Positions 31,937 through 48,346 of a stretch of 64,000 bases of DNA are shown piece after piece. This DNA comes from Ignavibacteriaceae bacterium. Its GTDB lineage: Bacteria; Bacteroidota; Ignavibacteria; Ignavibacteriales; Ignavibacteriaceae. The position numbers and the translations under genes are program-made. The stretch spans positions 4,823 through 68,822 of the forward strand of contig JBAYFO010000008.1 in NCBI GenBank assembly GCA_041667115.1, read 5' to 3'. Numbering within the stretch: the stretch's first letter is position 1; each line of letters starts with the position of its first letter. The notes under the pieces were generated by a model, which was given only the letters and a program-made list of their open reading frames with translations, was not told the DNA's origin and ran no database searches.

Positions 31937-32552
31937 TCCGGGACGATTGTTGTGTTTATCTTTCGAATGTAGAAAGAACATATTCCATCCAGCCAAGTGA
32001 GACGCACTCCCTCAGAATTAAAATACTATTTGATATTAAAATAAAATTTTTCTAATTTTTAAACAGAAAGGGAACAAATTCTCATATACCGGTTTCCTTT
32101 TCTGATTTCATCATAAAAATTTGTTCGGAGGTTATTTATAATGAAGCAGTTACTGGTACTTTTTCAGTTTTTCTTGTACAGCAGACTAAACATTATCTTG
32201 TTTAGTATTCCTCTCCAAATAAATTCATCACAAAACAAATGCCTCTAGCGTTAGGGTTAACTGCAATCCGTTATTAGGTACTCTCTTCAGCAGTTGATCC
32301 TGTAAACAATTCCACTTTCACATCGCGCGGTACACCGCAGAAAATAAATCACGGCAGCTATTCATTATGAATTTGCCGGATATCGAATTCCCTTTAAAAG
32401 GGGAGAAATATTTTTAGAACACAAGAACTTGAAAATTTAAATGGATGGTTGGATGTGTTATGAAACCCGTCAACCACAACCGTTTTTCATGTCTGTGGAT
32501 AAACAAAATAAATAAGATTAAACATTACTAATAGTATTGGAGGTTACGTGAC

Positions 32553-33233: not shown

Positions 33234-33295
33234 TAGTAAATGAATCACCATAAAGAAAATGATCAAAATATTTTATTATAAAAGGAGATTGAGTT

Positions 33296-34489
33296 ATGGA
33301 AATAGAACAACAAACAACTTCTGCCAATCCTACTGTTGTAGTAAAGAAAAAACGGTTTTTATCCTGGGCAAAAGAAATATTCTTACTTGCCTGGTATTTG
33401 ATTAGAGATTTATTCGCCGCTTTTTTACGGTTCTTCAACATCAAGCAAATTTATTATTTGGATGCTCATCAAGCGTATAGAAAAATACTTAGTGAATACG
33501 CGGTAATTCATTCGGTAATCCTGGCAAAGGAAAAGATCAGCGCAGAAGAGCATGATACTATTCAAGAGATTGATTTAATTATTGCTGAAGCAAACCGGAT
33601 TAACCACTATGAAGAATTGTGGCCGTTCATTCATCTTATTGAATTACAGATACTCAGGCTTTATGATTTGAAAGCGCTTCTCTCCCACCTAATTATTATC
33701 CGTAATAACCTTTATGTGCTGGATGAGGAAGATAGAAAACGGTGGGAACCGGTACTTACTAAATTTGATGTGGCGGACAACGCCCAACCGCTTGACGAAA
33801 ACTATTTCCGTAATGTGATCTATTCGGTAACGGCAGAAATTCAAGAAGCCCGGCGGCTGAATTTTATGACCACCGATCTTAAACATGCGTTAATGAAAAG
33901 ATTTTTCTGGATCACCCTTGGTGTAGGAATTCTTGCATGGGGATTTGCCTTTGCGATTATCCGCGACCCGCTTGTACACTACGCGGTAATCTTCGGACTG
34001 CTGGGAGGATTCTTCAGCCGTGTGTTAGCGTTAAAGAGTCTGGAATTTAAGCCCGCGGCGTTTTCTCTTTTAGCGCTTTACACTTACATTCAACCTTTGT
34101 TGGGAGGTGTCGGCGCTTTGATCTTGTATCTTATTCTCATTTCACCTCTTGGTCCGCAGGTAATAAGCGGTGATACTTTTTATCTAAGCGATACCGAAAC
34201 GCACAACTACATTGTTGCTAAAATTAGTGACTCGACCACCGTAATGAGTTGGAAAGTACCCGCGTTAATTAGAGATACTTCGCTCATCTCAACCTCCAAA
34301 GTTATTTCACAGTATCCGAAGCCGGGAATGTTTTTACTCTTAGCCTTCCTTGCCGGCTTTTCTGAACGGTGGCTGCTCGGTACGCTTGAAACAATTGTAG
34401 GAAAGAAATTACAAAAGGATGGTGATGGAAAATCCACACCGGAAGTAAAACCGGCTCCGGTTACAACTACGCCGGAAGTAAAACCTTAA
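33296..34489 (+). CDS. hypothetical polytopic membrane protein with a helical cytoplasmic N-domain and a Pro/Lys-rich tail
   Basis: 397 aa with about 5-6 hydrophobic helices (FFWITLGVGILAWGFAFAII, VIFGLLGGFFSRVLAL and others). C-terminus is TPEVKPAPVTTTPEVKP. SD is AAAGGAG. Confidence 0.6.
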   Translation: MEIEQQTTSANPTVVVKKKRFLSWAKEIFLLAWYLIRDLFAAFLRFFNIKQIYYLDAHQAYRKILSEYAVIHSVILAKEKISAEEHDTIQEIDLIIAEANRINHYEELWPFIHLIELQILRLYDLKALLSHLIIIRNNLYVLDEEDRKRWEPVLTKFDVADNAQPLDENYFRNVIYSVTAEIQEARRLNFMTTDLKHALMKRFFWITLGVGILAWGFAFAIIRDPLVHYAVIFGLLGGFFSRVLALKSLEFKPAAFSLLALYTYIQPLLGGVGALILYLILISPLGPQVISGDTFYLSDTETHNYIVAKISDSTTVMSWKVPALIRDTSLISTSKVISQYPKPGMFLLLAFLAGFSERWLLGTLETIVGKKLQKDGDGKSTPEVKPAPVTTTPEVKP

Positions 34490-34500
34490 GGAGAAAAATA

Positions 34501-34788
34501 ATGACTAATTCATCAAATGAAATTCGGAATTGTGTTAGGGCTAAAGTTCGTGCATTCTGTTTTGCTGGAGCTCAAATAACGGATGACGAAATCGGAAAGA
34601 CTAAAATAAGTGATTTACCGCTTTCTCAGAATCCCAATATGCCCGGTGTTTCACCAATGCAGCCATTGGTAATCAAATTAAAGAAGTGTGTAGATATTAG
34701 TATTGATCTTTCGGTTGATACTTTAACAAGTCATTCTACCTGGACTGTGGATGATGTTTCACAATATATAAATGGACAAACAATATAA
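34501..34788 (+). CDS. hypothetical small protein
   Basis: 95 aa, SD GGAG 8 nt upstream, 11 nt after the preceding stop; no family recognised. Confidence 0.5.
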   Translation: MTNSSNEIRNCVRAKVRAFCFAGAQITDDEIGKTKISDLPLSQNPNMPGVSPMQPLVIKLKKCVDISIDLSVDTLTSHSTWTVDDVSQYINGQTI

Positions 34789-34798
34789 AGGAGCTAAC

Positions 34799-35839
34799 AT
34801 GAAATTCTTTTATAAGTTTTTGCTAGCTGTTGTGGTATTAGCATGTGCCATTTATCCACAAAATGTTAGCATGTTAACTACTAATAAGATTGAGTCGGGA
34901 GAAATCGTTTATTTCGAAAACGCTAAGGATAGTAGTGAGTTAACAAAAAGATATAATTATTTTCTGAAAGCAAAGATCGTTCTTAAAAACGAAACAAAAG
35001 GAAGTGAAGTTACTGCCAGGGAGAGTATCGGTGTTAAAGATGGGGAGCTTGTATTTATCAAGTTCGTCGATAATGCTATCAAGAATATGGCTGGCGATGA
35101 CTTTGCGTTATATCTTGATAATGTTTTAGTAAAGCGGACTGATTCTGTTTCAGCAATAGGAGGAGGTGTTTTCAAACTAGATCTTAAACCTTCTCTTGAC
35201 GCAGCAGAAGCTCAGAAACTTGATCTTGTTTGGGGAAGGAAGTTTGTGGAAAGTTATACTAATGGCACAGCCATGAATGTTGACTTAAATCTTAAAGGGG
35301 CATTCTCTTCTAAACCAGATTCCGCCGCATTGAACAGCGTTCAAATAAAAGGAGGATATACTTTCATCTTTACGGATGTGGGTCTTTTTAAATATCTAGG
35401 ATTAAACGGAAATATCGGGAGCGAACATCCTCAAAATTTTAGTCAAACGAATATGGTTGGGAGTGTTGCTTTTAGTACGGTTCTACCCTGGACGGATATT
35501 CTTGCAAGAGTTATTGCTAATAATAGAACAAACGCTTCAATAGGGTTGCTTCTTCAACCTGCAATAGAATTTGTAAAGAATACTACGGTAAAAGATTCTT
35601 CTTATTTACGTGGAGCTATACATGGAGGTTGGGACATCCCCTTATTAAAAAATCAGTATGTCAGTTTTTATGGCGTTGCTTACTTTCAAAAGGGATATCA
35701 ACCGCGCTCATATGTTGAGATGACATTGGAACAAGATCTTTCGGAGTCTCTTGCAGTAGTAGCTAAATGGGTAAATGGTGCGCTGCCTCCTTTGTTTCAA
35801 CATGAAGCTGATTTTAGAATAGGATTACGTTTTAAATAA
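34799..35839 (+). CDS. secreted hypothetical protein, possible outer-membrane beta-barrel
   Basis: Start moved to MKFFYKFLLAVVVLACA (signal peptide, SD AAGGAG). The C-terminal half has alternating beta-strand patterns and ends FRIGLRFK. Confidence 0.55.
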   Translation: MKFFYKFLLAVVVLACAIYPQNVSMLTTNKIESGEIVYFENAKDSSELTKRYNYFLKAKIVLKNETKGSEVTARESIGVKDGELVFIKFVDNAIKNMAGDDFALYLDNVLVKRTDSVSAIGGGVFKLDLKPSLDAAEAQKLDLVWGRKFVESYTNGTAMNVDLNLKGAFSSKPDSAALNSVQIKGGYTFIFTDVGLFKYLGLNGNIGSEHPQNFSQTNMVGSVAFSTVLPWTDILARVIANNRTNASIGLLLQPAIEFVKNTTVKDSSYLRGAIHGGWDIPLLKNQYVSFYGVAYFQKGYQPRSYVEMTLEQDLSESLAVVAKWVNGALPPLFQHEADFRIGLRFK

Positions 35840-35981
35840 GGGGAGGGATGGATTCTAAAAGTGACTAATGGAAAGACTGAGCTATCGATAGATAAAGATA
35901 ATATGGTTTTTAAGAAATAAAAAAGTGAAGCACTGTTTTAATAGATGGAGGGCTGTTCTTTGAAATTACATGGCACATTTT

Positions 35982-36340
35982 GAAGGGTTACCTTCAAGAA
36001 ATGAAAGGTGACTCCAATGAAATGAGAGGTGACACCGGAGAAATGTTATCTAACGGTGAGGAAATAAAAACTGACATGTGAGAAATGTCATGTTGCAGTG
36101 AAGAAAAGTAATCTTACAGTAAGGAAATGAATGCTCGCGTGCGAGAAATATCATCTAACAGCGAGGAAATAAAAGCTTGCACTGAAGAAATGTCAGCTTG
36201 CAGTGAAGAAATGTCAGCTCGCTGTGAAGAAATGTCAGTTTGCTGTGAAGAAATGTAATCTTGCAGTAAGGAAATGAATGCTTGCATGTGAGAAACATCA
36301 CCTAACAGTCAAGATCTAGAAGGTGAAAGATGAAAAATGT
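35982..36340. repeat. second tandem array of about 17 copies of a 21-bp unit
   Basis: Core unit GTCAGCTTGCAGTGAAGAAAT, with GTCAG at 36192, 36213 and 36234. Flanks are degenerate. It shares the phased TGAAR...ATG pattern with the array at 22971. All frames contain stops. Confidence 0.9.
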
Positions 36341-36501
36341 TTGAATTTGGGAGAAAAACAAGGATTTGTTACACAAAGGGGACACGAAGAGCGCGAAGAA
36401 GATCCCTTCGTGGAGCTCTGCCTGAGGCAGACAGGTTCGAGACAGTATTTGTTCTTAAAAATAAATTAAATCTTCATTCATTAACAAAAAGGAGTACTAC
36501 A

Positions 36502-37200
36502 ATGAATACCCGTGAAAAAAACAAGCATGAAATGCTTGGCACCGTTACCGGTTTTTATGAGACGGAGAAGAGCACATTCGCTGATCTGCCCGGATTAATC
36601 TCGGCATTCTCGGATGTTATCGCGATCAACAAGGAGATCGATCTGAATGAAAAGGTCGTTCAGGAAGGGACAAAGGGGAAAGTAGTTTCCCGGGATGATT
36701 CCCAGTCCGAGCTGATCAAAATTGCTCTGGTTTGTGCCGGGGCTATCTACGGCTATGCTGCCGCAGAAAACGATCTTGAACTGTTAACCTTTGCCGATGT
36801 AAGCAGCAGCACGTTCAAGAAAATGAGGGACGCGGAAATTCCTCTTAAGGTTGAAAAGATTCTGGATAAAGGGGACGAGCTCGGGGCGGCGCTCATTCCT
36901 TTCGGCTTGTCGGAAGAAAAGAGGACCACCGGCAGGGCGAGTCTGGATGATTACATGGAGAAATTCGGCAGTGTAAATACGGGAAAGGGGAATAAAAAAT
37001 CAGCCGCGGAAAGCAGTAAGAAGCTGCTCGTAAAAGTTGATCAGAAGCTGAAGGTGCTGGATAAGTTGATGCTGAACTTTAAGGAGGAGAAACCCGACTT
37101 ATATTCCCGGTACAGCATGGCACGGATTATCTACGACAAGAGGGGGAGCCGAAGGGGAGGGAACGGTGAGACTCCTCCTCCGCCGGAAGAGCCGAAATAA
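36502..37200 (+). CDS. hypothetical protein
   Basis: Start moved to MNTREKNK (SD AAAGGAG 7 nt upstream); the listed 36337 start lies inside the repeat array. 232 aa, helical, Gly/Pro-rich C-terminus. Confidence 0.55.
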   Translation: MNTREKNKHEMLGTVTGFYETEKSTFADLPGLISAFSDVIAINKEIDLNEKVVQEGTKGKVVSRDDSQSELIKIALVCAGAIYGYAAAENDLELLTFADVSSSTFKKMRDAEIPLKVEKILDKGDELGAALIPFGLSEEKRTTGRASLDDYMEKFGSVNTGKGNKKSAAESSKKLLVKVDQKLKVLDKLMLNFKEEKPDLYSRYSMARIIYDKRGSRRGGNGETPPPPEEPK

Positions 37201-37513
37201 TTAACGATTGCAACAAAAGCACTCCCACGGTTGCGATCCATTGCAGCGATACCCTGAAGGGTATCGCTGTTCGAAAAAATCATCCCGATAAATCGGGATG
37301 ATATGGGAATTGATGGTTTGTTAGAATGAGATAGAAAAAAGTTGGAATACATCTACCTGTCCGCCTTTGGCGGATGAAGTGCCGTGCGGTAATGTATTCC
37401 TTAATTAACTAAACTGTGCGGCATAAGTAATAATTACTTGACTTTCTTTTCTATAGACAACATGGTTAGACGAATAGGACTGGAATCAAGAATAATTAAA
37501 AAGGAGATAAAAA

Positions 37514-38038
37514 ATGAACAAAGATCCAAGGTCAGCCGAAGAAAGAGCAGCGCATGAGGCATTTGCGAAAGCAACGCTGCAACATACTAATCAACGGATA
37601 CTGCAGCTTCTTGAGAAACCTCCGGCAAACGATATCTTGCAGAAGATGCCGGGTTTAAATATTGAAGCTGCAAGGTTGGCAGCTAGTTCAAACGAATCGT
37701 ACAGCTACAGTGCTCAAATGGATTTTGCAAATTTATTTGGCGGTGTAGTAAATCTGTTTCCGGAGGGGTATCCGCCATTCTTTAAGGGATTTTATGGAGG
37801 GTTAGGGGTAGGTCTTGGCTCTACGTGGGGAACTTGCTTCTTCAACTTTGATTTGAAATCACTTGACAAAGTGATCGCGAACTTTGAGTTCAACATAGCT
37901 CCCGCATTCACGCAAATTAATTTCTGGAAGCTGGTGGACGGCAGTTTTATTGGTCATTTCATTGGTGGTGGAGTAGCATTCGGGCTGGGTGTTTATGGAG
38001 GACAAGGCAGCTGGAGCGACCATAGGGAATGGCAATAG
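37514..38038 (+). CDS. VapA-family (Rhodococcus equi virulence-associated protein, R_equi_Vir-like) beta-barrel protein homologue
   Basis: The C-terminus FEFNIAPAFTQINFWKLVDGSFIGHFIGGGVAFGLGVYGGQGSW parallels VapA YNAVGPYLNINFFDSSGSFLGHVQSGGVSTVVGVGGGSGSW as I recall it. SD is AAGGAG. Confidence 0.55.
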   Translation: MNKDPRSAEERAAHEAFAKATLQHTNQRILQLLEKPPANDILQKMPGLNIEAARLAASSNESYSYSAQMDFANLFGGVVNLFPEGYPPFFKGFYGGLGVGLGSTWGTCFFNFDLKSLDKVIANFEFNIAPAFTQINFWKLVDGSFIGHFIGGGVAFGLGVYGGQGSWSDHREWQ

Positions 38039-38240
38039 CAACTCAATTAATATGTAAAAGTTGGTTGGTTGTTTTAGTCGTCTTCGGCTTTATGGTAGCT
38101 TAGGTGATTCTATTGCCAAAGGGAATTGTAGGGATTTGAAAAATAGAATCGTATAACACTTGTTGAAGTCTTGACTTGTTAAAGTTTAGAAGGGAGGGTT
38201 GTGCCCGCCGGTGTTCCCAACAACCGGGAATCAATTTAGT

Positions 38241-38707
38241 TCTGTCCCGATAGCTATCGGGACAGGTTATGAATTAGATAGTTAGTAATCCGCCAGAGGC
38301 GGACGGCGCAGGATGGCGAGAATATTAAAAATTTAAGAATAACGATTAACGATATTTGATTTATGATGTGACAAAATCTTCTAACCATGGCAAGCCTTGG
38401 CATGCTTCTAAAATCGTTAATCCCCGTCTGAGCCGGGCAGGCTTGTTCTGAGATCAATTTTGGTTCCAGCTTTGCCGATTTATATAGTTAGTAAAAATCC
38501 GCCGCGGCGGACGGCGCTGGATGGCGAGGATATTAAAAATTTAAGAATAACGATTAACGATATTTGATTTATGATGTAACAAAATCTTCTAACCATGGCA
38601 AGCCTTGGCATGTTTCTAAAATCGTTAATCCCCGTCTGAGCCGGGCATGCTTGTTCTGAGATCAATTTTGGTTCTGTCCCGATAGCTATCGGGACAGGTT
38701 ATGAATT
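38241..38707. repeat. tandem duplication (2 copies, about 97 percent identical over about 190 bp) of a 225-bp non-coding module bounded by a GTCCCGATAGCTATCGGGAC hairpin
   Basis: Copy 1 is about 38276-38465 and copy 2 about 38490-38675. Each has a TCCGCC-loop-GGCGGA hairpin and a 10-bp long-range inverted repeat GATTAACGAT...ATCGTTAATC. The bounding hairpin is at 38244-38263 and 38676-38695. Confidence 0.85.
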
Positions 38708-39042
38708 CCGCCGCGGCGGACTAATAACTAATAACTGTAAACTGAAAACTTTTTTTATAAATTGGAAATATGTCAGAAACTCCTTAGGTTTGTCCATAGT
38801 AATTATTGAGAGAAGAGGCACTATTATTTCTTCATTAGTATTACATAGAACAATATTACCGAACGGGGTAAATACATTACCTTCTCCCCTTTTATTTCCT
38901 ACATCGAAAAAGACAACAAAAGAATTTTACTTAAAAGTATTTATATCTCTTTTAACAACTTGTCACGCAAGGCGTGATAACACGGCGGTATACCTTTGAT
39001 AATTATTTAAAATAAATTAATTATAAAGTTACATACTAATTT

Positions 39043-39903
39043 ATGGACAGTTATTTTTTAAATTTTATTATTAACACTTTTTTAATGGTATTTGCCATTG
39101 TTTCAGTTATAGAACTTATCTATGATAAAACTATTAAAGGCTCTATCTTCGGTAGAATTAGTAAAAGAGGGTGGTACTTAGTCATAAGTGCAGTACTAAG
39201 TATTGGTTTTAATCTTTACAGGGACTGGCAAGCGGATACTAAACAAGAGGAAACTGACAAGGCAAAAGCCATAAGTGATTCATTGCTTCAATCATCACAA
39301 ACAAAAATACTTCTACTCCAAATATCAACAAAAGATACAATTATTAAAAAAGTAGATAGTACTTATGCGAAAAGTATCAAGGCTTCAAACGAGGCCCTAG
39401 CAAAATATAACCTAAAAATTACTGATTCACTGCATTCTGTAGTTAGCAAATTAAAACTGGATGCAGCGAAACCACAAATACTAATAGCTCCATTAGAAAA
39501 AGGAAGAAGTCCAGCATTCCTAACAAAGGACAATGATAAAAATCGGTTTAATATTCAATTTATTTCAAAAGGTGGCACATGTTATCATATAAGTCTTTAT
39601 TGTTATTTGCTAAAAGATAGAGGTCATGATGATTATTTATTATTAGGGTCATCTCCTCTAACGATTGGAGAAAGCTTTCTTGCTGAAGATGTTTTAAGAA
39701 CAAAATATCTGGAAATATCTCCTGGTATTCTTGTTTACCCTGAGGTTGTGGTATTTCTCACGGGATATTTTTCAAAAGATCCTGATGGAAATATTTTAAT
39801 TCCCTTTAATGAAACTTTTAAATTTAATTTTAAGGAAAACATTTATATATCCGGTTTGGAAATGAAGTACGATAAGATAAAGAAACAACTAAATATTAAA
39901 TAA
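39043..39903 (+). CDS. hypothetical membrane-anchored protein (2 N-terminal TM helices)
   Basis: 286 aa, very AT-rich, no SD, no family recognised. Confidence 0.5.
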   Translation: MDSYFLNFIINTFLMVFAIVSVIELIYDKTIKGSIFGRISKRGWYLVISAVLSIGFNLYRDWQADTKQEETDKAKAISDSLLQSSQTKILLLQISTKDTIIKKVDSTYAKSIKASNEALAKYNLKITDSLHSVVSKLKLDAAKPQILIAPLEKGRSPAFLTKDNDKNRFNIQFISKGGTCYHISLYCYLLKDRGHDDYLLLGSSPLTIGESFLAEDVLRTKYLEISPGILVYPEVVVFLTGYFSKDPDGNILIPFNETFKFNFKENIYISGLEMKYDKIKKQLNIK

Positions 39904-40092
39904 AAACCGCACATAAACCACGAACGTATAAACGATTTTACAGTGCTGTTTTTTCGGGTTTTGCATTTCAGTTCAGTAGTTTTGTGTTAAGAGTTCTAGA
40001 TAAGTAAATAGTTAAATAATTATGATTGTTGTAACTAACACGGCGGAGCGTTCTTGGCGGTGTGTTAGGCGCAACAACGTTATACGATTTGT

Positions 40093-41028
40093 ATGAAGGA
40101 TATATCTAAAATAGAATCTGAAGTTCGCACATATATAAATGCTGCTAGAAAAATAAATGTATTACTAAAAGATAAGATTGCTTGGAATAAATTATGTAGT
40201 TCTTTAGATATTATTGGGGATACAGAATTAGCTATTAAAGAATATCTAAAAATTAAAAAAACAAAAAATGATGGAGAAAAATATTTAATTGTATTCGGAA
40301 TTCTACAAATTCTTTTTGTTCAACAAGATGCTGTTAACAATCTTTGCGAAGCATTAAATATTAAATTTCCCCTCAATCAGGATTTAATTAAAATTAGAGA
40401 AATTAGGAATGATAGTATTGGGCATCCAACAAAAAGAGGTTCTGGGGAAGGGAAATATTTTAATTTTATTAGTCGTCCATATTTGGGACACACTGGATTA
40501 AGTTTGATGACAGTTTATCCAAGCAGAGAAAAAGAAACTGAATTCAGACATTATAATATTCACGAGCTAATAAGAACTCAAAATGAAATAATTTATAATT
40601 CATTGATAGAAGTTGTAAAAAAATTAAAAGAAGAAGAAATGGAACATAGAAAGAAGCATCGTGACAAAAGTATCGCTGGAATATTTCCAACAACTTTACA
40701 CTACCATTTTGAAAAAATGTACGAATCAACTCATCAAACAGCTCCACTTGATATTGGAAAAATAAATTATGATGTAGTAAAAAAAAATCTCGGAGAATTT
40801 ATTACAGAATTACAGAATAGAGGAGTTTACGATGCTTACGATTGGTTAAAGTATCATATTGAATTAATAGAATATCCCCTGGAACGACTTAGAAATTATT
40901 TTTATAGAATAGATGATGTTCCTAATGATAAAGATGCCTATATCTATATTTTTTTTCTTGAAAAACAGTTTAAAGAAATAGTCCAAATGGCAAAAGAGAT
41001 TGATGCAGAATACCAAGAAGATTTATAA
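40093..41028 (+). CDS. hypothetical protein with a candidate HEPN-type Rx4-6H motif
   Basis: 311 aa, all-helical composition. FGILQILFVQQDAVNNL is followed by IREIRNDSIGHPTKR (R-x5-H). AT-rich; the start lies 8 nt after a GTTATAC motif. Confidence 0.5.
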   Translation: MKDISKIESEVRTYINAARKINVLLKDKIAWNKLCSSLDIIGDTELAIKEYLKIKKTKNDGEKYLIVFGILQILFVQQDAVNNLCEALNIKFPLNQDLIKIREIRNDSIGHPTKRGSGEGKYFNFISRPYLGHTGLSLMTVYPSREKETEFRHYNIHELIRTQNEIIYNSLIEVVKKLKEEEMEHRKKHRDKSIAGIFPTTLHYHFEKMYESTHQTAPLDIGKINYDVVKKNLGEFITELQNRGVYDAYDWLKYHIELIEYPLERLRNYFYRIDDVPNDKDAYIYIFFLEKQFKEIVQMAKEIDAEYQEDL

Positions 41029-41137
41029 AACTTATAACATCTTTAATCCGCCAGAGGGCGGATAAATAAGTAAAGCGTACACGCTATGGTGTGGCAGGCG
41101 CAACATCGTTATACCTCATAAATAAAAGGAATGTCTT

Positions 41138-41347
41138 ATGGCAAATAGTATTACAGGAAATCATGATGGTGAAAATGGACGTAATGAATCTTACCATATT
41201 CCTGGTAGAGGAGATGTCCCACGGAAGAAACTAGTTAGAGAAGTTGAAGAGGATAAACATCCCAAATTCAGTATTTATAAAATTAATAGGGAAAAATTTG
41301 TTCGAGGCAAACCTGATGACTCTGAAAAAAACAATATAAATAAATAA
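41138..41347 (+). CDS. DUF3892-like small protein
   Basis: 69 aa; the C-terminal FVRGKPDDSEKNNI resembles the conserved Y.RT..D....NNL end of DUF3892. Confidence 0.45.
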   Translation: MANSITGNHDGENGRNESYHIPGRGDVPRKKLVREVEEDKHPKFSIYKINREKFVRGKPDDSEKNNINK

Positions 41348-41602
41348 TATTTTCGGTTATGGTTATTATAATTAACCAACGAGCGTAACTCTAAGGATTG
41401 TTCTTTCTTTCAATTTTGTTGCAATATTTGGAAATATTACTTTCACAGTAAATTTATTTGTGGAGGCAGTTATGAATCTAAATACGAACATTTATTTGTT
41501 TGCTTGTGCTTTGGCGGGGATTGCCCTTACGAGGAGGTCTGGTGACTTTCTCCAATAATAGTAGATTGCAAAAAAATGGAATAAGAATAATCTGGAATTA
41601 CG

Positions 41603-41640
41603 GTTAAGGGCTGGGGGTTCGATTCCCCCACTCCTCGCCA
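41603..41640 (+). other. tRNA-like 3' fragment (T-arm, acceptor 3' strand, CCA); not a complete tRNA
   Basis: GGGGG-TTCGATT-CCCCC canonical T-arm, then ACTCCTC-G-CCA. The only complementary 5' strand (GAGGAGG at 41531) is 110 nt away and no cloverleaf can be drawn. Confidence 0.45.
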
Positions 41641-41991
41641 TAATTTGAAATATAATGATATAACATCTTTAATAAGTTAAGAGTCATGCTAGGATTGGTA
41701 GTCAAGAGAAAAATATACGCCAGAGGCGTATCCGCCTTTGGCGGAAATTCCACTAACAATCCACAAATGCGGGTGGTTAGCTAAAATGTTTTTTGTTTTT
41801 ATTGTTCAGTACAACTCCGTCACTTTGGGTGCGGAGATTTTTAATAAGTAAATAATCCGTTTTGTTTATAAAACGAGAATGGAAATCTTTAATTAATTAA
41901 TACGGCGTGTTGGGTTTTAACAACTTGCAACGCAAGGTGTGATAACACGCCGTTATATGACTAAACATAATTTCTAAACAAAAGGTGCTTT

Positions 41992-42918
41992 ATGAAACAA
42001 TTATTTATAACTATAGTTACAGTTTTTATTTTATTGCTTGACTGTACTACACTATCTTTTGCTCAAACCGCCACGGTGTCAGGTGCGGGAACAGGGGGTG
42101 TAAATGGCACTTATACGCAGGCAGGGACTTCAAATAGTCGTCCATATTTTACGTATGGTATATACAGACTCGAGTACAGGGATGGTGGTTATGGCATTGA
42201 ATGGGAGATCTGGGATACAAATGAATCCAACCTATCGTACGAAGTTAAATATTATAATTTAAGTACTGCACTAACACCACCATCAATAGGTTGGCAAACT
42301 GATGTTGCCTCAGTCCCTGCTCCAACTGTAAATTATGTATTACCAGTTGAATTGACTTCTTTTAATGCAATTATTAGTAAAAGCACAGTAGAACTGAATT
42401 GGCAGACTGCAACCGAAGTTAATAATTACGGTTTTGAGGTTGAACGCGCCGCGACTTCGCTCGTCATGAAATGGGAAAAGATATGTTTTATTCAAGGTCA
42501 CGGGAATAGTAATTCACCAAAAGAATATTCGTATGCCGACAAACCTGACGGCGGAAGTAGATTTAAGTACCGACTAAAACAAATTGACACTGACGGGAAA
42601 TATGAATATTCGCCGGAAGTTGAAGTGAGCTTTAATGTTCCCTCAGATTTTTCTGTTAAGCAGAATTTCCCGAATCCGTTTAACCCAACAACTAAAATAG
42701 AGTTTTCTATTCCTTCAGATGATAATGTGCAGATAAAAGTATTCAATGTTCTGGGTATGGAAGTAGCAACATTATTAGATGAGCACAGACAAGCGGGAAC
42801 CTATAGTGTAGAATTCTCCACCATAGGCGGAGCAAGTAATCTTTCGAGCGGAGTTTACTTCTATAGAATAGTAAGTGGAAAGTATTCTCAAATTAAAAAA
42901 ATGATCCTCCTTCGCTAA
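41992..42918 (+). CDS. T9SS type A sorting-domain protein (paralogue A)
   Basis: Signal peptide; LPVELTSF..NWQTATEVNNYGFEVER module; C-terminal NFPNPFNPTTKIEF...GVYFYRIVSG...KKMILLR. Confidence 0.8.
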   Translation: MKQLFITIVTVFILLLDCTTLSFAQTATVSGAGTGGVNGTYTQAGTSNSRPYFTYGIYRLEYRDGGYGIEWEIWDTNESNLSYEVKYYNLSTALTPPSIGWQTDVASVPAPTVNYVLPVELTSFNAIISKSTVELNWQTATEVNNYGFEVERAATSLVMKWEKICFIQGHGNSNSPKEYSYADKPDGGSRFKYRLKQIDTDGKYEYSPEVEVSFNVPSDFSVKQNFPNPFNPTTKIEFSIPSDDNVQIKVFNVLGMEVATLLDEHRQAGTYSVEFSTIGGASNLSSGVYFYRIVSGKYSQIKKMILLR

Positions 42919-42949
42919 TTGCTGCTGCACAGCGTTAAAGGATAAGAAT

Positions 42950-43159
42950 ATGAAATCTCTGGTTGTATTTGTTGGATGGAGCATTTTGTTTGTTCTGTGC
43001 TGGCCGGTGGCACTGGTTGCATTAATACTCTTTCCCGTGGTTTGGCTATTGTCTTTACCATTGCGGCTTATCGGGATCACTCTTGATGCGGTTTTTGCGC
43101 TGATCCGTACTTTGATGTTTCTTCCGGCTCGTGTGCTCGGGTGGAGGAGAAATAAATAA
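42950..43159 (+). CDS. small hydrophobic membrane protein (69 aa), paralogue A
   Basis: 2-3 TM helices; conserved as a pair with the upstream CTD protein in both copies of the duplication. Confidence 0.55.
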   Translation: MKSLVVFVGWSILFVLCWPVALVALILFPVVWLLSLPLRLIGITLDAVFALIRTLMFLPARVLGWRRNK

Positions 43160-43541
43160 GGTGTTTGACGAAAACGAGGGTGTTAAGCTAAAATGTTTTT
43201 TGTTTTTAGTATGCACGAGTATTAAAATAAAACTTATAAATCCTCTACGAGGATTAAGGTGAGAGAGCGTGTTGTTGGTTACAAGAATAAGACCTCTACG
43301 AGGTCTAAGGCAAAACATCGTAGATGTTTAATAGTTGTAAAAAAATAGACCAAAGAAAGATGATCCTCGTAGAGGATCAATAAAATTAAACAGAAATGGA
43401 AATCTTTAAATAATTAATACGGCGGTGTTAGGTTTTAACAACTTGTAACGCATTGCGTGATAAGACGGCGTTTGGTGGCTTAAGAATAGAGATTTATTCA
43501 CGATTATAGATATACTAAAACACTAAATAAGAGAAAATATT

Positions 43542-44897
43542 ATGAACAAAAAATTACTTTTTATTTTATCATTATTCGTCGCATTTTCAATCAATGTAGA
43601 GTTAAATGCTCAAACTACTCTAAATGCGGGGGATATAGTCATTATTGCCATTAATGGTGACACAGATGCCACTTATGGGCGAGGCTTTTCATTTATGCCA
43701 CTGGTTAATTTAGACGCTGGAACAGAGATTTATTTCACTGACTATGGTTGGAGCGATGTAGCCGGTGCTTTTATAAATAGTACTGCAATATCAGATGTAT
43801 TCGTGAAATATACTGCTCCTGCAGGAGGCGTTTCTGCCGGGACAGTAATACGAAACGCTACTAATTCGACAACAAATTTTGCGTTTTATTTTGCATATGG
43901 CATTTCAGTTTACGACTACGTGAATCTTGTTGGAGTTACTGCATCCGATGAAGTTTTAGCATTTCAGGGAAGTATCGCTTCACCAACATTTCTATTTGCT
44001 GCAACATATGTGTCTACCGCTGTAGTAGCTTCAGGTTGGGCAACAGGTGTCGCCGCAACAGGAGGTACTAATGGTGTTGGATCAGCTTTGCCAGGTACTG
44101 GAAATGCTTCTGTTGCTGATTTGACAGATGATGTAACAGCTTTATCTTTTAACCAATTAGCAACTGCCAATGATAATTGTGCATATACCGGCCCAACGAC
44201 AGCCGCCACGATGGCAGAATGGCGTAACAGAGTCAGCAATTATACAAATTGGACATTTAATGATGTTATACCAATACCAACGCCACTTAATACTGGCCCA
44301 TTTACGGTTACTGATGCGTTGCCGGTGGAATTAACCTCGTTTTCTGCAACTATTATACAAGGTAATATTTCATTAAACTGGCAGACAGCAACAGAGGTAA
44401 ATAACTACGGATTTGAAGTTGAACGCGCCGCGACTTCGCTCGGCATGACATGGGAAAAGATCGGATTTGTACAAGGACATGGGAATAGTAATTCACCAAA
44501 AGAATATTCGTATGCCGACAAACCTGACGGCGGAAGTAGATTTAAGTACCGGCTAAAACAAATTGACACTGACGGGAAATATGAATATTCGCCGGAAGTT
44601 GATGTTAGTTTAGATATTCCAACAGAATTTTCTATTAAACAGAATTTCCCGAATCCGTTTAATCCAACTACAAAAATAGAGTTCTCGATACCTACAGATA
44701 ATAATGTTCAAATAAAAGTATTTAATGTTCTGGGTATGGAAGTAGCGACATTATTAGATGAGCACAGACAAGCGGGAACCTATAGTGTAGAATTCTCCAC
44801 CATAGGCGGAGCAAGTAATCTTTCGAGCGGAGTTTACTTCTATAAAATAGTAAGTGGAAAGTATTCCGAAATAAAGAAGATGATCTTTCTTCGCTAA
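43542..44897 (+). CDS. T9SS type A sorting-domain protein (paralogue B, different N-terminal domain)
   Basis: Signal peptide and a unique 270-aa N-terminal region. The C-terminal 190 aa are nearly identical to 41992..42918. Confidence 0.8.
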   Translation: MNKKLLFILSLFVAFSINVELNAQTTLNAGDIVIIAINGDTDATYGRGFSFMPLVNLDAGTEIYFTDYGWSDVAGAFINSTAISDVFVKYTAPAGGVSAGTVIRNATNSTTNFAFYFAYGISVYDYVNLVGVTASDEVLAFQGSIASPTFLFAATYVSTAVVASGWATGVAATGGTNGVGSALPGTGNASVADLTDDVTALSFNQLATANDNCAYTGPTTAATMAEWRNRVSNYTNWTFNDVIPIPTPLNTGPFTVTDALPVELTSFSATIIQGNISLNWQTATEVNNYGFEVERAATSLGMTWEKIGFVQGHGNSNSPKEYSYADKPDGGSRFKYRLKQIDTDGKYEYSPEVDVSLDIPTEFSIKQNFPNPFNPTTKIEFSIPTDNNVQIKVFNVLGMEVATLLDEHRQAGTYSVEFSTIGGASNLSSGVYFYKIVSGKYSEIKKMIFLR

Positions 44898-44928
44898 ATG
44901 CTGCTGCACAGCGTTAAAGGATAAGAAT

Positions 44929-45138
44929 ATGAAATCTCTGATTGTATTTGTTGGATGGAGCATTTTGTTTGTGCTGTGCTGGCCGGTGGCACTGCTTGCA
45001 CTCATTCTCTTTCCCGTTGTTTGGCTTTTATCTTTACCATTGCGGCTTATCGGAATCACTCTTGATGCGGTTTTTGCGCTGATCCGTACTTTGATGTTTC
45101 TTCCGGCTCGTGTGCTCGGGTGGAAGAGAAATAAATAA
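44929..45138 (+). CDS. small hydrophobic membrane protein (69 aa), paralogue B
   Basis: Differs from 42950..43159 at only a few residues. Confidence 0.55.
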   Translation: MKSLIVFVGWSILFVLCWPVALLALILFPVVWLLSLPLRLIGITLDAVFALIRTLMFLPARVLGWKRNK

Positions 45139-45374
45139 GGTGTTTGACGAAAACGCGGGTGTTAAGCTAAAATGTTTTTGTTTTTAGTGTTTATGGTGTA
45201 ATAAACCGATAAATCGGTTGCGGGGTTGAGATGTGGTGTAAATGCCCACGACTGAAGTCGTGGGTTAATGAAAAAGTTTTTAATAATTAATACGGCGATG
45301 TTGGGTTTTAACAACTTGTCACGCAAGGCGTGATAATACGCCGTTAGGCGATTTAATATAAATGGAGATAAAAA

Positions 45375-45809
45375 ATGGTTAAATATATATCGAAGTTCGC
45401 GCTTCTAATTCTTGTTTTATCGATTATTTATTTGTTGATCTCTGGAAACATGTTGTCGGAATCACCATTTATTATAGTTGGTCAATTACTATCTGTTGGC
45501 TTTAGTATTTGGGCACGTCGCAGTTTTCAAAAAGAACAATTTAGCATTCATGCAGAACCTTCAAATGGTTCTCCTCTTACTACTGGGCCGTATAAATTTG
45601 TTCGTCACCCTATGTATACATCCGCATTGTTTCTTATTTGGATAAGTATTATTGGTCATTTATCCATTTTGACAGTTACAATTGGTGTAGTTGTATCTAC
45701 TGTAATATCACTTCGCATAATTACCGAAGAACAGTTACTTCGTGAAAGATTTCTTGATTACAATTTATATGCATCAAAAACTAAAACTATAATTCCGTTT
45801 CTTTATTAA
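45375..45809 (+). CDS. isoprenylcysteine carboxyl methyltransferase (ICMT/PEMT)-family membrane methyltransferase
   Basis: 4 TM helices and the GPYKFVRHPMYTSALFLIW motif. Confidence 0.7.
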   Translation: MVKYISKFALLILVLSIIYLLISGNMLSESPFIIVGQLLSVGFSIWARRSFQKEQFSIHAEPSNGSPLTTGPYKFVRHPMYTSALFLIWISIIGHLSILTVTIGVVVSTVISLRIITEEQLLRERFLDYNLYASKTKTIIPFLY

Positions 45810-46288
45810 TAAATCTATTCATTAATATTGAGTTTAAATGAGCGCCTAACATCTTTAATAAGTAAAGAGTCCACGCTAAGGCGTGGCAGGCACAGAAAAT
45901 AAATATTGGTGACAATCCGCAAATGCAGGCGCTTAGCTAAAATGTTTTTTGTTTTTAATATGCACGAGTATTAAAACAAAACTTATAAATCCCCGCCAGA
46001 GGCTGGCAGGCTCTACGAGGATTAAGGTGCGAGAGAGTGTTGTTGGTTACAAGAATAAGACCTCTACGAGGTCTAAGGCAAAACATCGTAGATGTTTAAT
46101 AGTTGTAGAAAAATATAACCATGAAAGATGATCCTCGTAGAGGATCAATAAAATTAAACGGAAATGGAAATCTTTAAATAATTAATTCGGCGTGTTGGGT
46201 TTTAATAACTTGCAACGCAAGGCGTGATAACACGGCGGTAGGGCAATTAAAAAAAATTACTCAACAATCCTTTTAAGAGGAAGGAAAT

Positions 46289-46786
46289 ATGGATGAATCA
46301 GAGAATAACTTATTAACGTGCGAAGCTTGTAATAATTCAGTTAAAAAGGATGACGATTTTTGCCCTTATTGTGGCTCTCTTTTCATTGATGAAATATTTT
46401 GCGATAACCACAATGCTATTCTTGCTGATGGTGTTTGTATAATATGTTCTATCCCGTATTGTAAAAAATGTGGAGCAAAAATAAATAATCATTTTCTATG
46501 CAATCAACATTCCAATTATGAAATTTATGAAGGAATGGCCAGAGTCTATGGAACTCTTGATATCACAGCTATTCAATATGCAAAAACTTGTCTTGAACAG
46601 GATGGTCTTCATCCTGTTTTGTTTAGTCGTAATTCCACTTATGGAGGTTCAAGATTGTCATATAGTCTTTTTGAGGCTGCCGGAGACTATTTAGGAAATA
46701 TAATAGATGAAATTAAAGTTATGGTTCCTTGTCAGGAAGTGTTAAAGGCTGAGGAAATCCTTAAATCAATTAATATAATTACCTAA
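46289..46786 (+). CDS. zinc-ribbon protein with a DUF2007-like C-terminal domain
   Basis: CEACN...CPYCG and several further CxxC pairs. Same architecture as 26294..26836 but a divergent sequence. Confidence 0.5.
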   Translation: MDESENNLLTCEACNNSVKKDDDFCPYCGSLFIDEIFCDNHNAILADGVCIICSIPYCKKCGAKINNHFLCNQHSNYEIYEGMARVYGTLDITAIQYAKTCLEQDGLHPVLFSRNSTYGGSRLSYSLFEAAGDYLGNIIDEIKVMVPCQEVLKAEEILKSINIIT

Positions 46787-46904
46787 CAGTTTATAAATAG
46801 AAAACTACCTGACTTCTTCAATCCGCCAAAGGCGTATAAATAAGGAAAGGGTCCTCGCAAGGGCGTGGTAAGTAAAAAATAACACGATTGATTATTACCA
46901 ACGC

Positions 46905-46988
46905 GAAGCATAAATTGCACCCAAGATTTGTAGTGTGTTTTACTTATTTCCGACAACTTCCTCTTAGTAACCCACGACCGATCACAAA
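46905..46988. repeat. 84-bp direct repeat, copy 1 (left of the RhuM-Fic gene)
   Basis: GAAGCATAAATTGCACCCAAGATTTGT...CTCTTAGTAACCCACGACCGATCACAAA; about 4 mismatches to 48163..48246. Confidence 0.9.
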
Positions 46989-47042
46989 CGAATGGAATCT
47001 CTAAATGTTCGAAGGAGCATTGGTTTAGTGAAAACCACAAAG

Positions 47043-48040
47043 ATGAAAAACAATAAAATATCTTCTCTTTCAAAAGGAGAGGTAATTATTTACAAGTCTG
47101 CTGAAGGTGACACGGCAATTGATGTAAAATTTGAAGAAGAAACCCTTTGGCTAACCCATCAACAAATTGCCGCTCTCTTTGGAAGAGACCGCAGCGTGAT
47201 TACACGCCATATAGAGAACATCTTAAGAACTAAAGAACTTGACGAAAAAAGCAATGTGCAGAAAATGCACATTCCAAATTCCGATAAGCCGGTAAAATTC
47301 TACAACCTTGATGTAATTCTCTCAGTTGGTTATAGAGTAAATTCAAAACGCGGAACCCAATTCCGGATTTGGGCAAATAAGATTCTGAAAGAATATCTGA
47401 TTGAAGGATATGCCTTAAATGAAAAAAGATTGAAAGAGCAAACCGGAAAAATAAAAGAATTAGAAAAATCTCTGGAAATTTTTAAGCGGATTGCCGATAC
47501 TTATCAATTAGAAAAAGATGAACTTGCCGGCATACTAAATGTTATTTCTGATTATACTTATGCGCTTGATATTCTAGATCGGTACGACCATCAGCAACTC
47601 AGTATTTCCAAACCCGAAAAGAAAGAGGAGTACAGAATAATATATGAAGACGCAAAGTTGTTAATAAAAAATCTCAAAAAGAAATTTAGCAGTTCCACTT
47701 TGTTTGGTAAAGAAAAGGATGAATCCTTAAAGAGTACGGTGGGGACAATTTACCAGACATTCAATAAAAAAGAACTCTATCCAAGTATCGAAGAAAAGGC
47801 AGAATGCTTTTGTATCTGACGATTAAAAATCACTCGTTTATTGATGGCAATAAAAGAATCGCCGCTGCAATTTTTTTGATGTACCTTAGCAAAAATAATT
47901 ATCTCTACACCAAGGATGGTGAAAAAAGAATTACCGATAATGCTTTAGTGGCAATAAGTCTAATGATAGCTGTGAGTGATCCTAAAGAGAAAGATATAAT
48001 AGTTAAGGTAGTCGTCAACCTGATAAACAAGAATAATTAA
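47043..48040 (+). pseudogene. RhuM-family virulence protein fused to a Fic/DOC domain, interrupted by a frameshift near 47803
   Basis: The N-terminal part ends ...PSIEEKAECFCI* at 47819. Frame -1 continues MLLYLTIKNHSFIDGNKRIAAA (Fic motif HxFxDGNKR). Joining the two gives the family consensus EEKA..LLY.I.KNH.F.DGNKR. There is no slippery heptamer. Confidence 0.7.
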
Positions 48041-48162
48041 CATCCCCGTATTAAAAGGGGAATAATGACAGAAGGATTTCAATTGATTGAGTTTATGACT
48101 GACTAAAAAAACGAATAAAAGTTTAGGCTTACAAAATTTACTAGATTGATTTTGAATAAAGA

Positions 48163-48246
48163 GAAGCATAAATTGCACCCAAGATTTGTCGTCTGTTTTA
48201 CTTACTTCCGACAACTTCCTCTTAGTAACCCACGACCGATCACAAA
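48163..48246. repeat. 84-bp direct repeat, copy 2 (right of the RhuM-Fic gene)
   Basis: Same sequence as 46905..46988; lies about 100 nt upstream of the 48347 gene. Confidence 0.9.
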
Positions 48247-48346
48247 AGCATGTAGTTATTTCTCGACCTTTACTTGCACACCCGTAAAAATTTTAGCAAG
48301 TATCAGTCATATGTAAAAATAATAAAACTATCATATGAGGTAGATC

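Follow-up and report, generated by a model that had tools for sequence, protein, structure and literature searches.

What gathers a run of unrelated small genes into a single array, separated by copies of a shared structured spacer, in an Ignavibacteriaceae bacterium? The initial annotation of this locus, which lies in a stretch of 64,000 nucleotides (the window), proposed an array of integron cassettes bounded by attC sites. As detailed below, the cassette array and its integron-type 7-mers stand, but the spacers are not canonical attC sites and no integrase is in view.

Gene content and repeat modules

The ORF listing of the window contains nine ORFs between 39043 and 46786, all on the plus strand as previously described (Table 1). 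The GC content falls to 0.28-0.30 in the 39-41 kb region compared to about 0.35-0.44 in its surroundings, in agreement with the AT-richness noted earlier for 39.0-41.3 kb. Of the functions predicted by the initial annotation, those of the T9SS (C-terminal tails), ICMT (PEMT/ICMT family) and zinc-ribbon (with DUF2007) proteins are supported by Pfam, whereas the 311-aa ORF labelled 'HEPN-like' belongs to no Pfam family and the DUF3892 match of the 69-aa ORF in cassette C is sub-threshold (E 0.014). Cassette E is paralogous to cassette D from 44304 onward. The arrays hold small ORFs without known function, secreted and membrane proteins and toxin-antitoxin pairs (one of them reversed), at low GC; this content is typical of sedentary integrons. 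The RhuM gene and Fic fragment at the right edge are an insertion separate from the array.

Motif searches of the window recovered the three spacer modules L, M and T where they had been reported and nowhere else in the 64 kb, with none expected by chance. The T core has five matches, all on the plus strand (38950, 41915, 43433, 45306 and 46200), compared to 0 expected from 100 shuffles; M occurs at 41777, 43184 and 45933, with a copy 1 nt shorter at about 45162, and L (TAACATCTTTAAT) at 41035, 41661 and 45847. Further modules, unnamed until now, are also common to the spacers (Xa, Xb and Xc), Xb being a 182-nt sequence with 95% identity between 43243 and 46011. The resulting architecture runs from L, a pair of GC hairpins, through the T-rich M and one X module out of several to T, a 65-nt dyad element terminating in CGCC-GTTA; the spacers are 83-450 nt long, mostly 220-450 nt. 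The two spacers lacking T share the end GGCGCAACAWCGTTATAC, S1 contains a T-5′-like palindrome (40033-40070) ending in GTTAGGC, and the Xa hairpins of S5 are AACCGATAAATCGGTT and CCACGACTGAAGTCGTGG. In the window, the next ATG lies 25-65 nt past the end of T, much as had been observed. The proposal that L directly follows a stop codon fails for two copies: at 41660 it follows the tRNA-like 3′ fragment, and at 45846 it lies 35 nt past the stop.

Table 1. Coordinates of the variable island, its cassettes and its spacers (window positions).
Feature	Position	Strand	Description
Whole variable island	31805..48103	+	between sdhB and native PPIase upstream region
Leftmost T, partial	38950..38993	+	3′ 44 nt only (TTTTAAC..hairpin..GGTATAC); left end of T-type array
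Cassette A ORF	39043..39903	+	286 aa, N-terminal TM segment; no Pfam family
Spacer S1	39926..40085	+	start GTATAAAC, end GCAACAACGTTATAC
Cassette B ORF	40093..41028	+	311 aa; no Pfam family
Spacer S2	41032..41114	+	shortest, 83 nt; TTATAAC + L (two hairpins) + GCAACATCGTTATAC
Cassette C ORF	41138..41347	+	69 aa; DUF3892 under threshold
tRNA/tmRNA-like 3′ end fragment	41604..41640	+	within cassette C
Spacer S3b	41658..41958	+	ATATAAC-L, M (41776-41801), Xc, T (41889-41958, end GTTATAT)
Cassette D	41992..43159	+	T9SS cargo 308 aa + 69-aa membrane partner
Spacer S4	43160..43476	+	no L; M (43180-43208), Xb (43209-43405), T (43406-43476, end GTTTGGT)
Cassette E	43542..45138	+	T9SS cargo 451 aa + 69-aa membrane partner
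Spacer S5	45139..45349	+	no L; M, Xa, T (end GTTAGGC 45343-45349)
Cassette F	45375..45809	+	PEMT/ICMT-family methyltransferase
Spacer S6	45844..46243	+	full form; GCCTAAC-L, M (45931-45957), Xb, T (end GGTAGGG)
Cassette G	46289..46786	+	zinc-ribbon + DUF2007 protein
Last spacer, degenerate	46781..46874	+	ACCTAAC, L-like hairpins, ..ATAACACG, then flank
Right-edge insertion	46875..48252	+	RhuM + Fic fragment; flanked by two 120-nt direct copies of PPIase upstream region

Core-site motifs bracket individual genes

The integron-type 7-mers reported at the module boundaries were confirmed, both the core-type sites (GTTATAC at 40079 and 41108, GTTATAT at 41952 and GTTAGGC at 45343) and the inverse-core ones (GCCTAAC at 45844, ACCTAAC at 46781, TTATAAC at 41032 and ATATAAC at 41658). 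M does not qualify as a GTT core site, its sequence being CTTAG or CTGAG in most copies. RYYTAAC opens each conserved spacer and GTTA closes it: conservation starts at YTAAC in 12 spacers and stops just past the GTT core (GTTA in most) in 17 T copies. A unit consists of unique DNA starting with TTARRY, one or two genes, and a complementary inverse core RYYTAAC at its end, and the units are joined by the lineage-specific mosaic repeat.

Bracketing of a gene by matching core and inverse-core sites had been seen for two ORFs. It is perfect for cassette F (TTAGGC and GCCTAAC, 7/7 complementary) and extends to a set of 12 cassettes from three genomes, where the TTRRRY after the upstream GTT site and the inverse-core 7-mer after the same gene (R″) are complementary at 34/48 variable positions (permutation P = 3e-4; P = 0.0056 when permuted within arrays). 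Such complementarity around one gene is the hallmark of integron cassettes. R″ and the R′ of its own spacer, on the other hand, are complementary at only 27/52 positions, no better than chance. In the two T9SS cassettes (D and E) the inverse core is absent, which counts against an integron-type reading.

Variation among relatives

The locus is a replacement hot spot between sdhB and the PPIase gene. In blastn comparisons with the relative L030 (sdhB protein 91% identical), homology ends at window position 31799 and restarts at 48104; the 16.3 kb of the window is replaced in L030 by 1.55 kb carrying a single unrelated gene (421 aa). L030 contains no modules and represents an array-empty site. 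A second relative, L017 (PPIase about 84% identical), carries four different genes at the same locus, each followed by L-M-Xb-T, with the array/chromosome junction a few nt past the R′ position of the last T. Since the locus is polymorphic between relatives, down to an empty site, the array cannot be dismissed as a run of genes in an order fixed among them.

The initial annotation suggested looking for presence/absence differences exactly at the GTT boundaries, and the breakpoints between genomes lie there only in part. A RelE-type toxin-antitoxin unit common to L002 and L003 shows 99.1% identity over 340 nt, through GCCTAAC, past which identity falls to about 88% and different genes follow downstream. 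Next to a core PQQ/BamB-like gene, however, T stays in place (92-98% identity) while the upstream cassette changes, with breakpoints at the 5′ edge of T or within Xa, not at GTT; this also counts against an integron-type reading. Among species-representative genomes and JGI metagenomes, the modules occur only in a few Ignavibacteriaceae contigs: T was found in 2 of 185,579 genomes and in five metagenome stretches (the same two contigs being among these five), no stretch holding more than 3 copies, and no modules were found in viral contigs.

Integrase search and attC tests

As noted earlier, the window contains no recognizable tyrosine recombinase, by Pfam among the ORFs of 20 to 54 kb or by tblastn with IntI1 over its whole length (nothing below E 2.8), and no IntI gene or fragment was found in the window or any related locus. 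A covariance model built from 9 class-1 attC sites (training sites 52-78 bits; held-out arr-3 attC 17-18 bits) matched neither the window nor the related loci; switching the filters off yielded at best 11.8 bits (E 0.44), at a position outside the modules (38151). When whole spacers were folded as single-stranded DNA, they formed several local hairpins and no R-box/L-box hairpin, and their ends never paired, compared to 5/6 known attC sites. In 22-nt arm duplexes, R-box pairs numbered only 4-7 (z ~0 vs. shuffles), whereas the R and L boxes of known attC sites reach -8.7 to -14.6 kcal/mol; neither an L box, the anticipated extrahelical bases included, nor arm complementarity past the 7-mers was found in the spacers. 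Most spacers (220-450 nt) also exceed the 57-141 nt range of attC sites. T showed neither covariation (paired cells 86.5% vs. 86.0% in shuffles) nor strand bias (10 G-T vs. 15 A-C), and so offers no indication that a folded strand is under selection. Judged by these models, none of the structural tests run identifies the spacers as attC sites.

Interpretation and alternatives

The reading we tentatively prefer is that of a strain-variable, integron-type cassette array without an integrase (CALIN-like), built on a non-canonical composite repeat. Site-specific recombination at the GTT/AAC core would add and remove cassettes, driven by an IntI-type tyrosine recombinase whose gene lies elsewhere in the genome or has since disappeared, with the long repeat standing in for the attC of ordinary integrons. 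Homologous recombination among the 86-93% identical modules would then reshuffle the spacers and make them mosaic. Complete integrons are already known in Ignavibacteriae (PMC9024848).

The main competitor, possible though we rather doubt it, is that L/M/X/T is a lineage-specific mosaic intergenic repeat, comparable to Escherichia coli BIMEs or Neisseria NIMEs, whose core-like 7-mers are mere repeat ends and whose intervening genes are exchanged, deleted or duplicated by homologous recombination, for example after DNA uptake. The spacers do combine Xa, Xb, Xc and Xd with two L types, breakpoints that separate genomes are spread over several points of the spacer, 300-nt stretches of 86-93% identity are good substrates for such recombination, and copies from different genomes resemble each other as much as those of a single genome do; the two T9SS cassettes resemble a local duplication, and integrase and attC fold are both missing. 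Homologous recombination leaves unexplained, however, why many unrelated genes carry one repeat joined at an identical nucleotide position, why the variable bases around each gene are complementary and why a 99% identity tract stops exactly at GCCTAAC. Nor is the repeat dispersed, being absent from the other 56 kb and found in only a handful of public contigs. The same distribution leaves scarcely any room for ordinary genome-wide REP or terminator hairpins adjoining core genes, already largely refuted within the available data: similar short GC-rich hairpins do occur outside the T array at 37.2-38.8 kb, as reported initially, and terminator-like sites are enriched (19 vs. 6.9 expected), but 20/32 of the window's GC-rich hairpins are concentrated in 36-48 kb, 14/19 terminator-like sites lie on the non-coding strand, and the other 56 kb, core genes included, is free of L, M and T.

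Two further explanations concern the spacer itself. A MITE-like non-autonomous element with terminal inverted repeats (..TAAC/GTTA..), inserted between pre-existing genes, would account for the RYYTAAC start and GTTARRY end of each spacer, one of which in L002 has perfect 7-bp ends (GCCTAAC/GTTAGGC). We consider it very improbable: a spacer's own ends are complementary at chance level only, which argues against terminal inverted repeats, while the ends around one gene exceed it; there are neither target-site duplications nor copies beyond the arrays, and the genes between spacers are wholly different among relatives. It is unlikely, to a lesser degree, that the spacer is a portable expression module, with M as promoter and X + T as a structured 5′ leader or operator, placing unrelated accessory genes under one regulator and repeated by selection. 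The constant position of T ahead of start codons in the window, the match of M in S4 and S5 to TTGACG-N18-TAAAAT, the operator-like dyad symmetry of T and of the CCTC-TAC-GAGG units of Xb, and the persistence of T beside the PQQ gene are consistent with this, as is the greater conservation of the spacers (86-93%, unpaired stretches included) than of the orthologous PPIase gene (83.5%). Against it, a T in L002 precedes an opposite-strand toxin-antitoxin operon, other copies of M lack the promoter-like spacing (S6 and L017 show about 23 nt), Rfam gave no relevant match, covariation is absent in both T and Xb, and in distant relatives PQQ and PPIase are not preceded by T. A regulatory role leaves the cassette polymorphism unexplained; it is nevertheless compatible with the integron-type array, whose repeat may be a source of expression signals for the downstream gene.

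Comparison with known systems

The array resembles integrons and CALINs in its co-directional unrelated small genes, toxin-antitoxin pairs and low GC (PMC4889954; PMC8618304). It shares with them a single homogeneous lineage-specific repeat separating the cassettes, with a RYYYAAC-like start and a GTTRRRY-like end, cassette-by-cassette TTRRRY/inverse-core complementarity and array content that differs between close relatives; like CALINs, it has no adjacent integrase. It differs from integron attC sites in that its repeat is an 83-450 nt mosaic of several local hairpins rather than a single R-box/L-box hairpin, has no arm complementarity past 7 nt, no L box with extrahelical bases and no match to the class-1 covariance model, conserves sequence rather than structure, and contains part of the recombination breakpoints.

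The VCR of Vibrio cholerae, a species-specific repeat of about 120-130 nt and roughly 90% identity, separates hundreds of superintegron cassettes of unknown function; it forms one imperfect palindrome in accordance with the attC model and adjoins intIA. The present repeat is likewise long and species-specific between cassettes, but can be as much as 3-4 times longer, has a modular build and does not form a single palindrome. Enterobacterial BIME/REP and Neisseria NIME/dRS3 elements are intergenic mosaics of short palindromic units and other conserved motifs, lying downstream of genes in tens to hundreds of copies dispersed over the genome, and NIMEs flank variable surface and toxin gene cassettes. 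Our spacers share this intergenic mosaic of palindromic units and other motifs, whereas L, M and T stay within one or two arrays, with integron-type 7-mers as their boundaries.

Composite spacers separate co-directional genes between sdhB and PPIase

The initial annotation described nine ORFs between 39043 and 46786, all on the plus strand, separated by spacers that reuse three modules, L, M and T, in a partly AT-rich stretch. The ORFs and their strand were confirmed, and GC content indeed falls to 0.28-0.30 in the 39-41 kb part. The core of module T matches five times (38950, 41915, 43433, 45306 and 46200, all on the plus strand) and in none of 100 shuffles. Module M is found at 41777, 43184 and 45933, with a copy one base shorter near 45162, and module L at 41035, 41661 and 45847; none of the three recurs in the window's remaining 56 kb. 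The functional labels of the ORFs stood only in part: Pfam supports two T9SS sorting tails, a PEMT/ICMT methyltransferase and a zinc-ribbon plus DUF2007 protein, but DUF3892 scored below threshold and the 'HEPN-like' label found no support. The zinc-ribbon plus DUF2007 gene, the last cassette of the array (46289-46786), has a paralogue at 26294-26836, among core genes 20 kb upstream.

The spacers share more than these three modules. The 65 nt of T form a dyad, ACGGCG(N)TGTT .. AACACGCCGT around TCACGC-AAG-GCGTGA, and three kinds of a further module, X, occur between M and T; one of them, Xb (182 nt), has two copies in the window with 95% identity. Two T-less spacers have a common end, GGCGCAACAWCGTTATAC. 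Spacers are mosaics of alternative L and X types and vary in length, S2 being 83 nt, S1 160 nt and the others 220-453 nt. The two T9SS cassettes share the gene for the 69-aa membrane partner and the M module that follows it, and look like a local duplication.

Features within and beside the cassette array (window coordinates)
Feature	Position	Sequence	Remarks
34-nt palindrome	38151-38184	GTATAACACTTGTTGAAG.CTTGACTTGTTAAAG	R-box/L-box-like arms with almost no loop; non-significant score with the attC model
Second repeat type, left of the T array	38235-38707	hairpins GTCCCGATAGCTATCGGGAC and TCCGCCGCGGCGGA	169-nt direct repeat (97% identical)
tRNA/tmRNA-like 3' end	41604-41640	GGGGGTTCGATTCCCCCACTCCTCGCCA	T arm, acceptor strand and CCA; in the ORF-less part of a 69-aa cassette, 18 nt before L
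T9SS cargo genes	41992-43159 and 43542-45138		N-terminal domains differ; C-terminal part common, 84% over 300 nt and then nearly identical
RhuM-family gene and separate Fic fragment	46875-48252		between two 120-nt direct repeats, 88% identical

Several other features lie in or near the array. The tRNA/tmRNA-like fragment, for which ARAGORN makes no gene call at 41604-41640, may be what is left of an attachment site, or may have been carried in; as an att site for the arrays it was rejected, having no counterpart in the others. The RhuM gene and Fic fragment are apparently a split RhuM-Fic gene, and the 120-nt repeats around them copy the native PPIase upstream region, so that the right edge of the array seems to have received this segment as a separate insertion or duplication. 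Short GC hairpins of a similar type were correctly noted outside the array: they are present in 37.2-38.8 kb, and the 36-48 kb part holds 20 of the 32 found in the window. Tandem 21-nt (or 42-nt) repeats occupy 35976-36322, upstream of a 287-aa ORF, and likewise precede its homologue in the related locus L007 (150-480); a further 21-nt periodic array lies at 22900-23353, and iteron-like 21-22-nt ATGTCA repeats lie upstream of PPIase in another related locus (L021, 100-330). L007 also carries spacers related to the second repeat type, which separate small lipoprotein and OMP genes, and a GxxExxY-type small gene with near-identical 90-nt repeats (..ttgtgaaaaacctttgtgttccttgtggttaa..) on both sides (540-1380), a further example, in a related variable region, of a small unit flanked by repeats.

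Complementary 7-mers bracket the cassettes

The core and inverse-core 7-mers quoted in the initial annotation had all been located correctly. Conservation between spacers begins at an RYYTAAC-like 7-mer, 0-35 nt past the stop codon; twelve spacers start with xxxTAAC variants (GCCTAAC, ATATAAC, GCATAAC, AGCCAAC and others), and an inverse core is missing from the two T9SS cassettes. Conservation stops at a GTT core (mostly GTTA) after CGCC, beyond which the copies diverge completely. Seventeen ends, with or without T, read GTTA plus 3 nt, with a few GGTA or GTTT variants, and the second R is often T. The spacers therefore carry an inverse core (RYYYAAC) on their 5' side and a core (GTTRRRY) on their 3' side, as attC sites do.

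Complementary 7-mers had been pointed out around two of the ORFs. We extended this comparison to 12 cassettes from three genomes (the window and the related loci L002 and L017), using the four variable bases of each 7-mer. The GTTRRRY upstream of a gene and the inverse core 3' of the same gene are complementary at 34/48 variable positions, compared to 22.8 +/- 3.1 expected from random re-pairing (P = 3e-4; P = 0.0056 for re-pairing within arrays). The inverse core and core of one and the same spacer are complementary at about chance level (27/52 variable positions). Bracketing of this kind is predicted for integron cassettes, because both 7-mers stem from one R box in the circular cassette.

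Comparisons between genomes also place recombination junctions at the 7-mers. A toxin-antitoxin unit common to the loci L002 and L003 is 99.1% identical over 340 nt, non-coding DNA included, through GCCTAAC inclusive; past this point identity is about 88% and the downstream genes are different. The junction between array and chromosome in L017 lies a few nt after the core position of its last, degenerate T. The initial annotation had suggested looking for presence/absence polymorphism exactly at the GTT boundaries; a second array locus, upstream of a core PQQ/BamB-like lipoprotein gene, gives a more complex picture. There, T remains linked to the gene at 92-98% identity while all the upstream sequence changes; in L025 the breakpoint is the 5' edge of T, and between L003 and L008 it lies inside Xa. 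These breakpoints inside the spacer, together with the mosaic of L and X types, indicate that homologous recombination between modules, or recombination at module borders, must also occur. Reading the array in the reversed orientation, with the minus strand as top strand, fits the break at the inverse core but not the PQQ contexts, where T alone stays with the gene; this was rejected.

The spacers do not fold as attC sites

Known attC sites are about 57-141 nt long, a range into which only spacer S2 (83 nt) falls. They have a pair of imperfect inverted-repeat arms, with an R box, an unpaired central spacer and an L box with extrahelical bases (PMC4889954). As controls we used 12 sites extracted from class-1 integrons on plasmids, 11 of which show an R box, a 5-nt spacer and an L box with one extrahelical base, with at least 8/9 pairs. 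A generic scan for this architecture, written in Python, passed 11/12 known sites; being unspecific (119 matches vs. about 100 in shuffles), it served only as a test of a necessary condition. The initial annotation had proposed looking for R and L boxes in the folded spacers. Minimum free energy folds with DNA parameters gave no terminal pairs in any of 10 whole spacers, on either strand, and several local hairpins instead; under the same conditions the ends of known attC sites were paired (4-6 terminal pairs) in 5/6 cases. In known sites, the 22-nt terminal arms pair as R and L boxes with energies of -8.7 to -14.6 kcal/mol; the arms of the candidate spacers form only 4-7 R-box pairs, with energies no different from shuffles, so that pairing is confined to the R box and the L box is missing.

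A match to an attC covariance model is the criterion that IntegronFinder applies. A surrogate model built from nine class-1 attC sites has limited reach, with scores of 52-78 bits for the sites it was trained on and only 17-18 bits for an arr-3 attC that was held out; within that reach, it matched no module, either in the window or in related loci. When the 31.8-49 kb part was scanned with filters off, its top match (11.8 bits, E 0.44) was the 34-nt palindrome at 38151, which belongs to no module. M as a second core site and T as an attC in its own right were also rejected. Most copies of M read CTTAG or CTGAG; the 65-nt form of T has an invariant 5' arm, TTAATAC, that neither pairs nor co-varies with the core-side 7-mer; and only the inner hairpin of a 44-nt form (TTTTAAC-5 nt-hairpin-GTTA) folds. 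By its structure, the junction element does not qualify as attC.

The repeat does not resemble a known RNA either. Rfam 15 gave no relevant match in 38-48.5 kb at E values up to 5; ARAGORN and Rfam (gathering and E-value modes) returned only a tRNA-Met, a cobalamin riboswitch and the tmRNA T-arm fragment, none of them matching L, M or T. Pairing in T is at the level of column shuffles (86.5% vs. 86.0%), with two compensatory cells and wobble pairs that show no strand bias (10 G-T vs. 15 A-C). The covariation term from RNAalifold was +1.2, with 2/67 compensatory pairs. A 14-bp long-range helix enclosing three hairpins is possible in Xb; it is invariant and so gains no support from covariation. 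What is conserved is therefore sequence, and not demonstrably structure.

The reported absence of a tyrosine recombinase held for the ORFs of 20-54 kb. A tblastn search with IntI1 found nothing below E 2.8 in the window and nothing below E 0.1 in 12 related loci, and no integrase was found near any array when flanks were walked via PPIase, PQQ and sdhB homologues and contigs, the arrays being mostly at contig ends.

The repeat is rare and its locus is polymorphic

Of 185,579 species-representative genomes, only two, both of them Ignavibacteriaceae MAGs, contain a match to a degenerate T pattern; it also matched five metagenome stretches, two of which are the same contigs of these MAGs. Each matched stretch has at most three T copies: a 1.4-kb stretch around the match in a 284-kb contig has one, and the stretch around the match in a 124-kb contig has two exact matches. 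T is absent from IMG/VR viral contigs, and a viral origin was rejected.

The core genes at the ends of the locus, sdhB (31034) and PPIase (48347), allow it to be compared between relatives, which confirmed the suspected presence/absence polymorphism. L017, whose PPIase is 84% identical, has the same flank preceded by four different co-directional genes or gene units (a secreted protein; a DUF2975 protein with a small HTH gene; an M23 peptidase; an alpha/beta hydrolase), each followed by L-M-Xb-T. L030, whose sdhB protein is 91% identical, has no modules and is empty of the array: homology with the window ends at 31799 and restarts at 48104, 1.55 kb replacing 16.3 kb. L023 (GCA_030693705.1, JAUYAB010000064.1, positions 1-520; PPIase 63% identical) carries a CRISPR array with repeat GTCGCATGAATGATTCTTATGAAGAAGATTGAGAC directly upstream of the PPIase orthologue, the position of the cassette array in the window. 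No L, M or T modules were found at the locus in more distant relatives. Both the toxin-antitoxin unit and the PQQ flank are seen in 2-3 contexts each, T lying 5' of the PQQ/BamB-like gene in three contigs with a different upstream gene in each. M-Xb-T is 86-93% identical within and between genomes alike, a level above that of the PPIase coding sequence (83.5%) and of the native upstream region of this gene (78%).

Origin of the array

Both the array and the integron-like logic of its junctions are real and have statistical support; relatives differ at the locus, which in one of them is an empty site. We tentatively read the array as an integron-type cassette array, similar to the integrase-less arrays known as CALINs, with a non-canonical composite repeat that homologous recombination has secondarily reshaped. 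The bracketing 7-mers point to this reading, and the failure of the spacers to fold as attC speaks against it. A more doubtful interpretation is a distinct, undescribed cassette platform, with GTT/AAC 7-mer limits and a large mosaic L-M-X-T repeat in place of a foldable attC. Such a platform could use a divergent recombinase acting on the T dyad or on the 7-mers in double-stranded form, or repeat-mediated recombination alone, and its repeat might also provide every incoming gene with a portable promoter and leader. That the mosaic repeat is shuffled without any dedicated recombinase seems to us equally doubtful; the breakpoints inside spacers fit this idea, and the complementarity of 7-mers across each gene is what integron cassettes predict.

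A repeat that is primarily a portable expression module is improbable. In S4 and S5, M looks like a sigma-70 promoter, but other copies do not keep the spacing, and one T in L002 precedes an operon on the opposite strand, so that T is not simply a 5' leader; an expression role of the repeat is nevertheless compatible with everything seen. A MITE-like mobile spacer is very improbable, the ends of one spacer being complementary at just 27/52 variable positions, about chance level, which speaks against terminal inverted repeats, and no target-site duplications having been seen. An ordinary REP or terminator family is scarcely credible. Terminator-like sites (hairpin plus T-run) are enriched in 37000-48400 (19 vs. 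6.9 expected), but 14/19 are on the non-coding minus strand, the coding-strand hairpins thus being preceded by A-runs. REP/BIME elements would be dispersed in many copies beside core genes; the lack of L, M and T in the rest of the window, the few genomes and copies in which T occurs, and the position of most arrays at contig ends rule out an ordinary genome-wide REP family.

Between one pair of core genes, one of three related genomes has a full array, another a different array and the third an empty site, and a fourth relative has a CRISPR array at this spot; with this compact natural experiment, the mechanism of recombination can be tested directly. The attC fold is what defines integrons and what searches for them rely on. 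If there are cassette arrays whose junction elements keep the 7-bp core logic alone and otherwise consist of long mosaic repeats, surveys based on attC models and proximity to intI would miss them, and cassette-type gene flow in poorly sampled phyla would be underestimated. Ignavibacteriae are already known to have complete integrons (PMC9024848), and CALINs are common (PMC8618304). If the array does represent an undescribed platform, the FCB group would have solved the integron problem independently or in a deeply diverged way.
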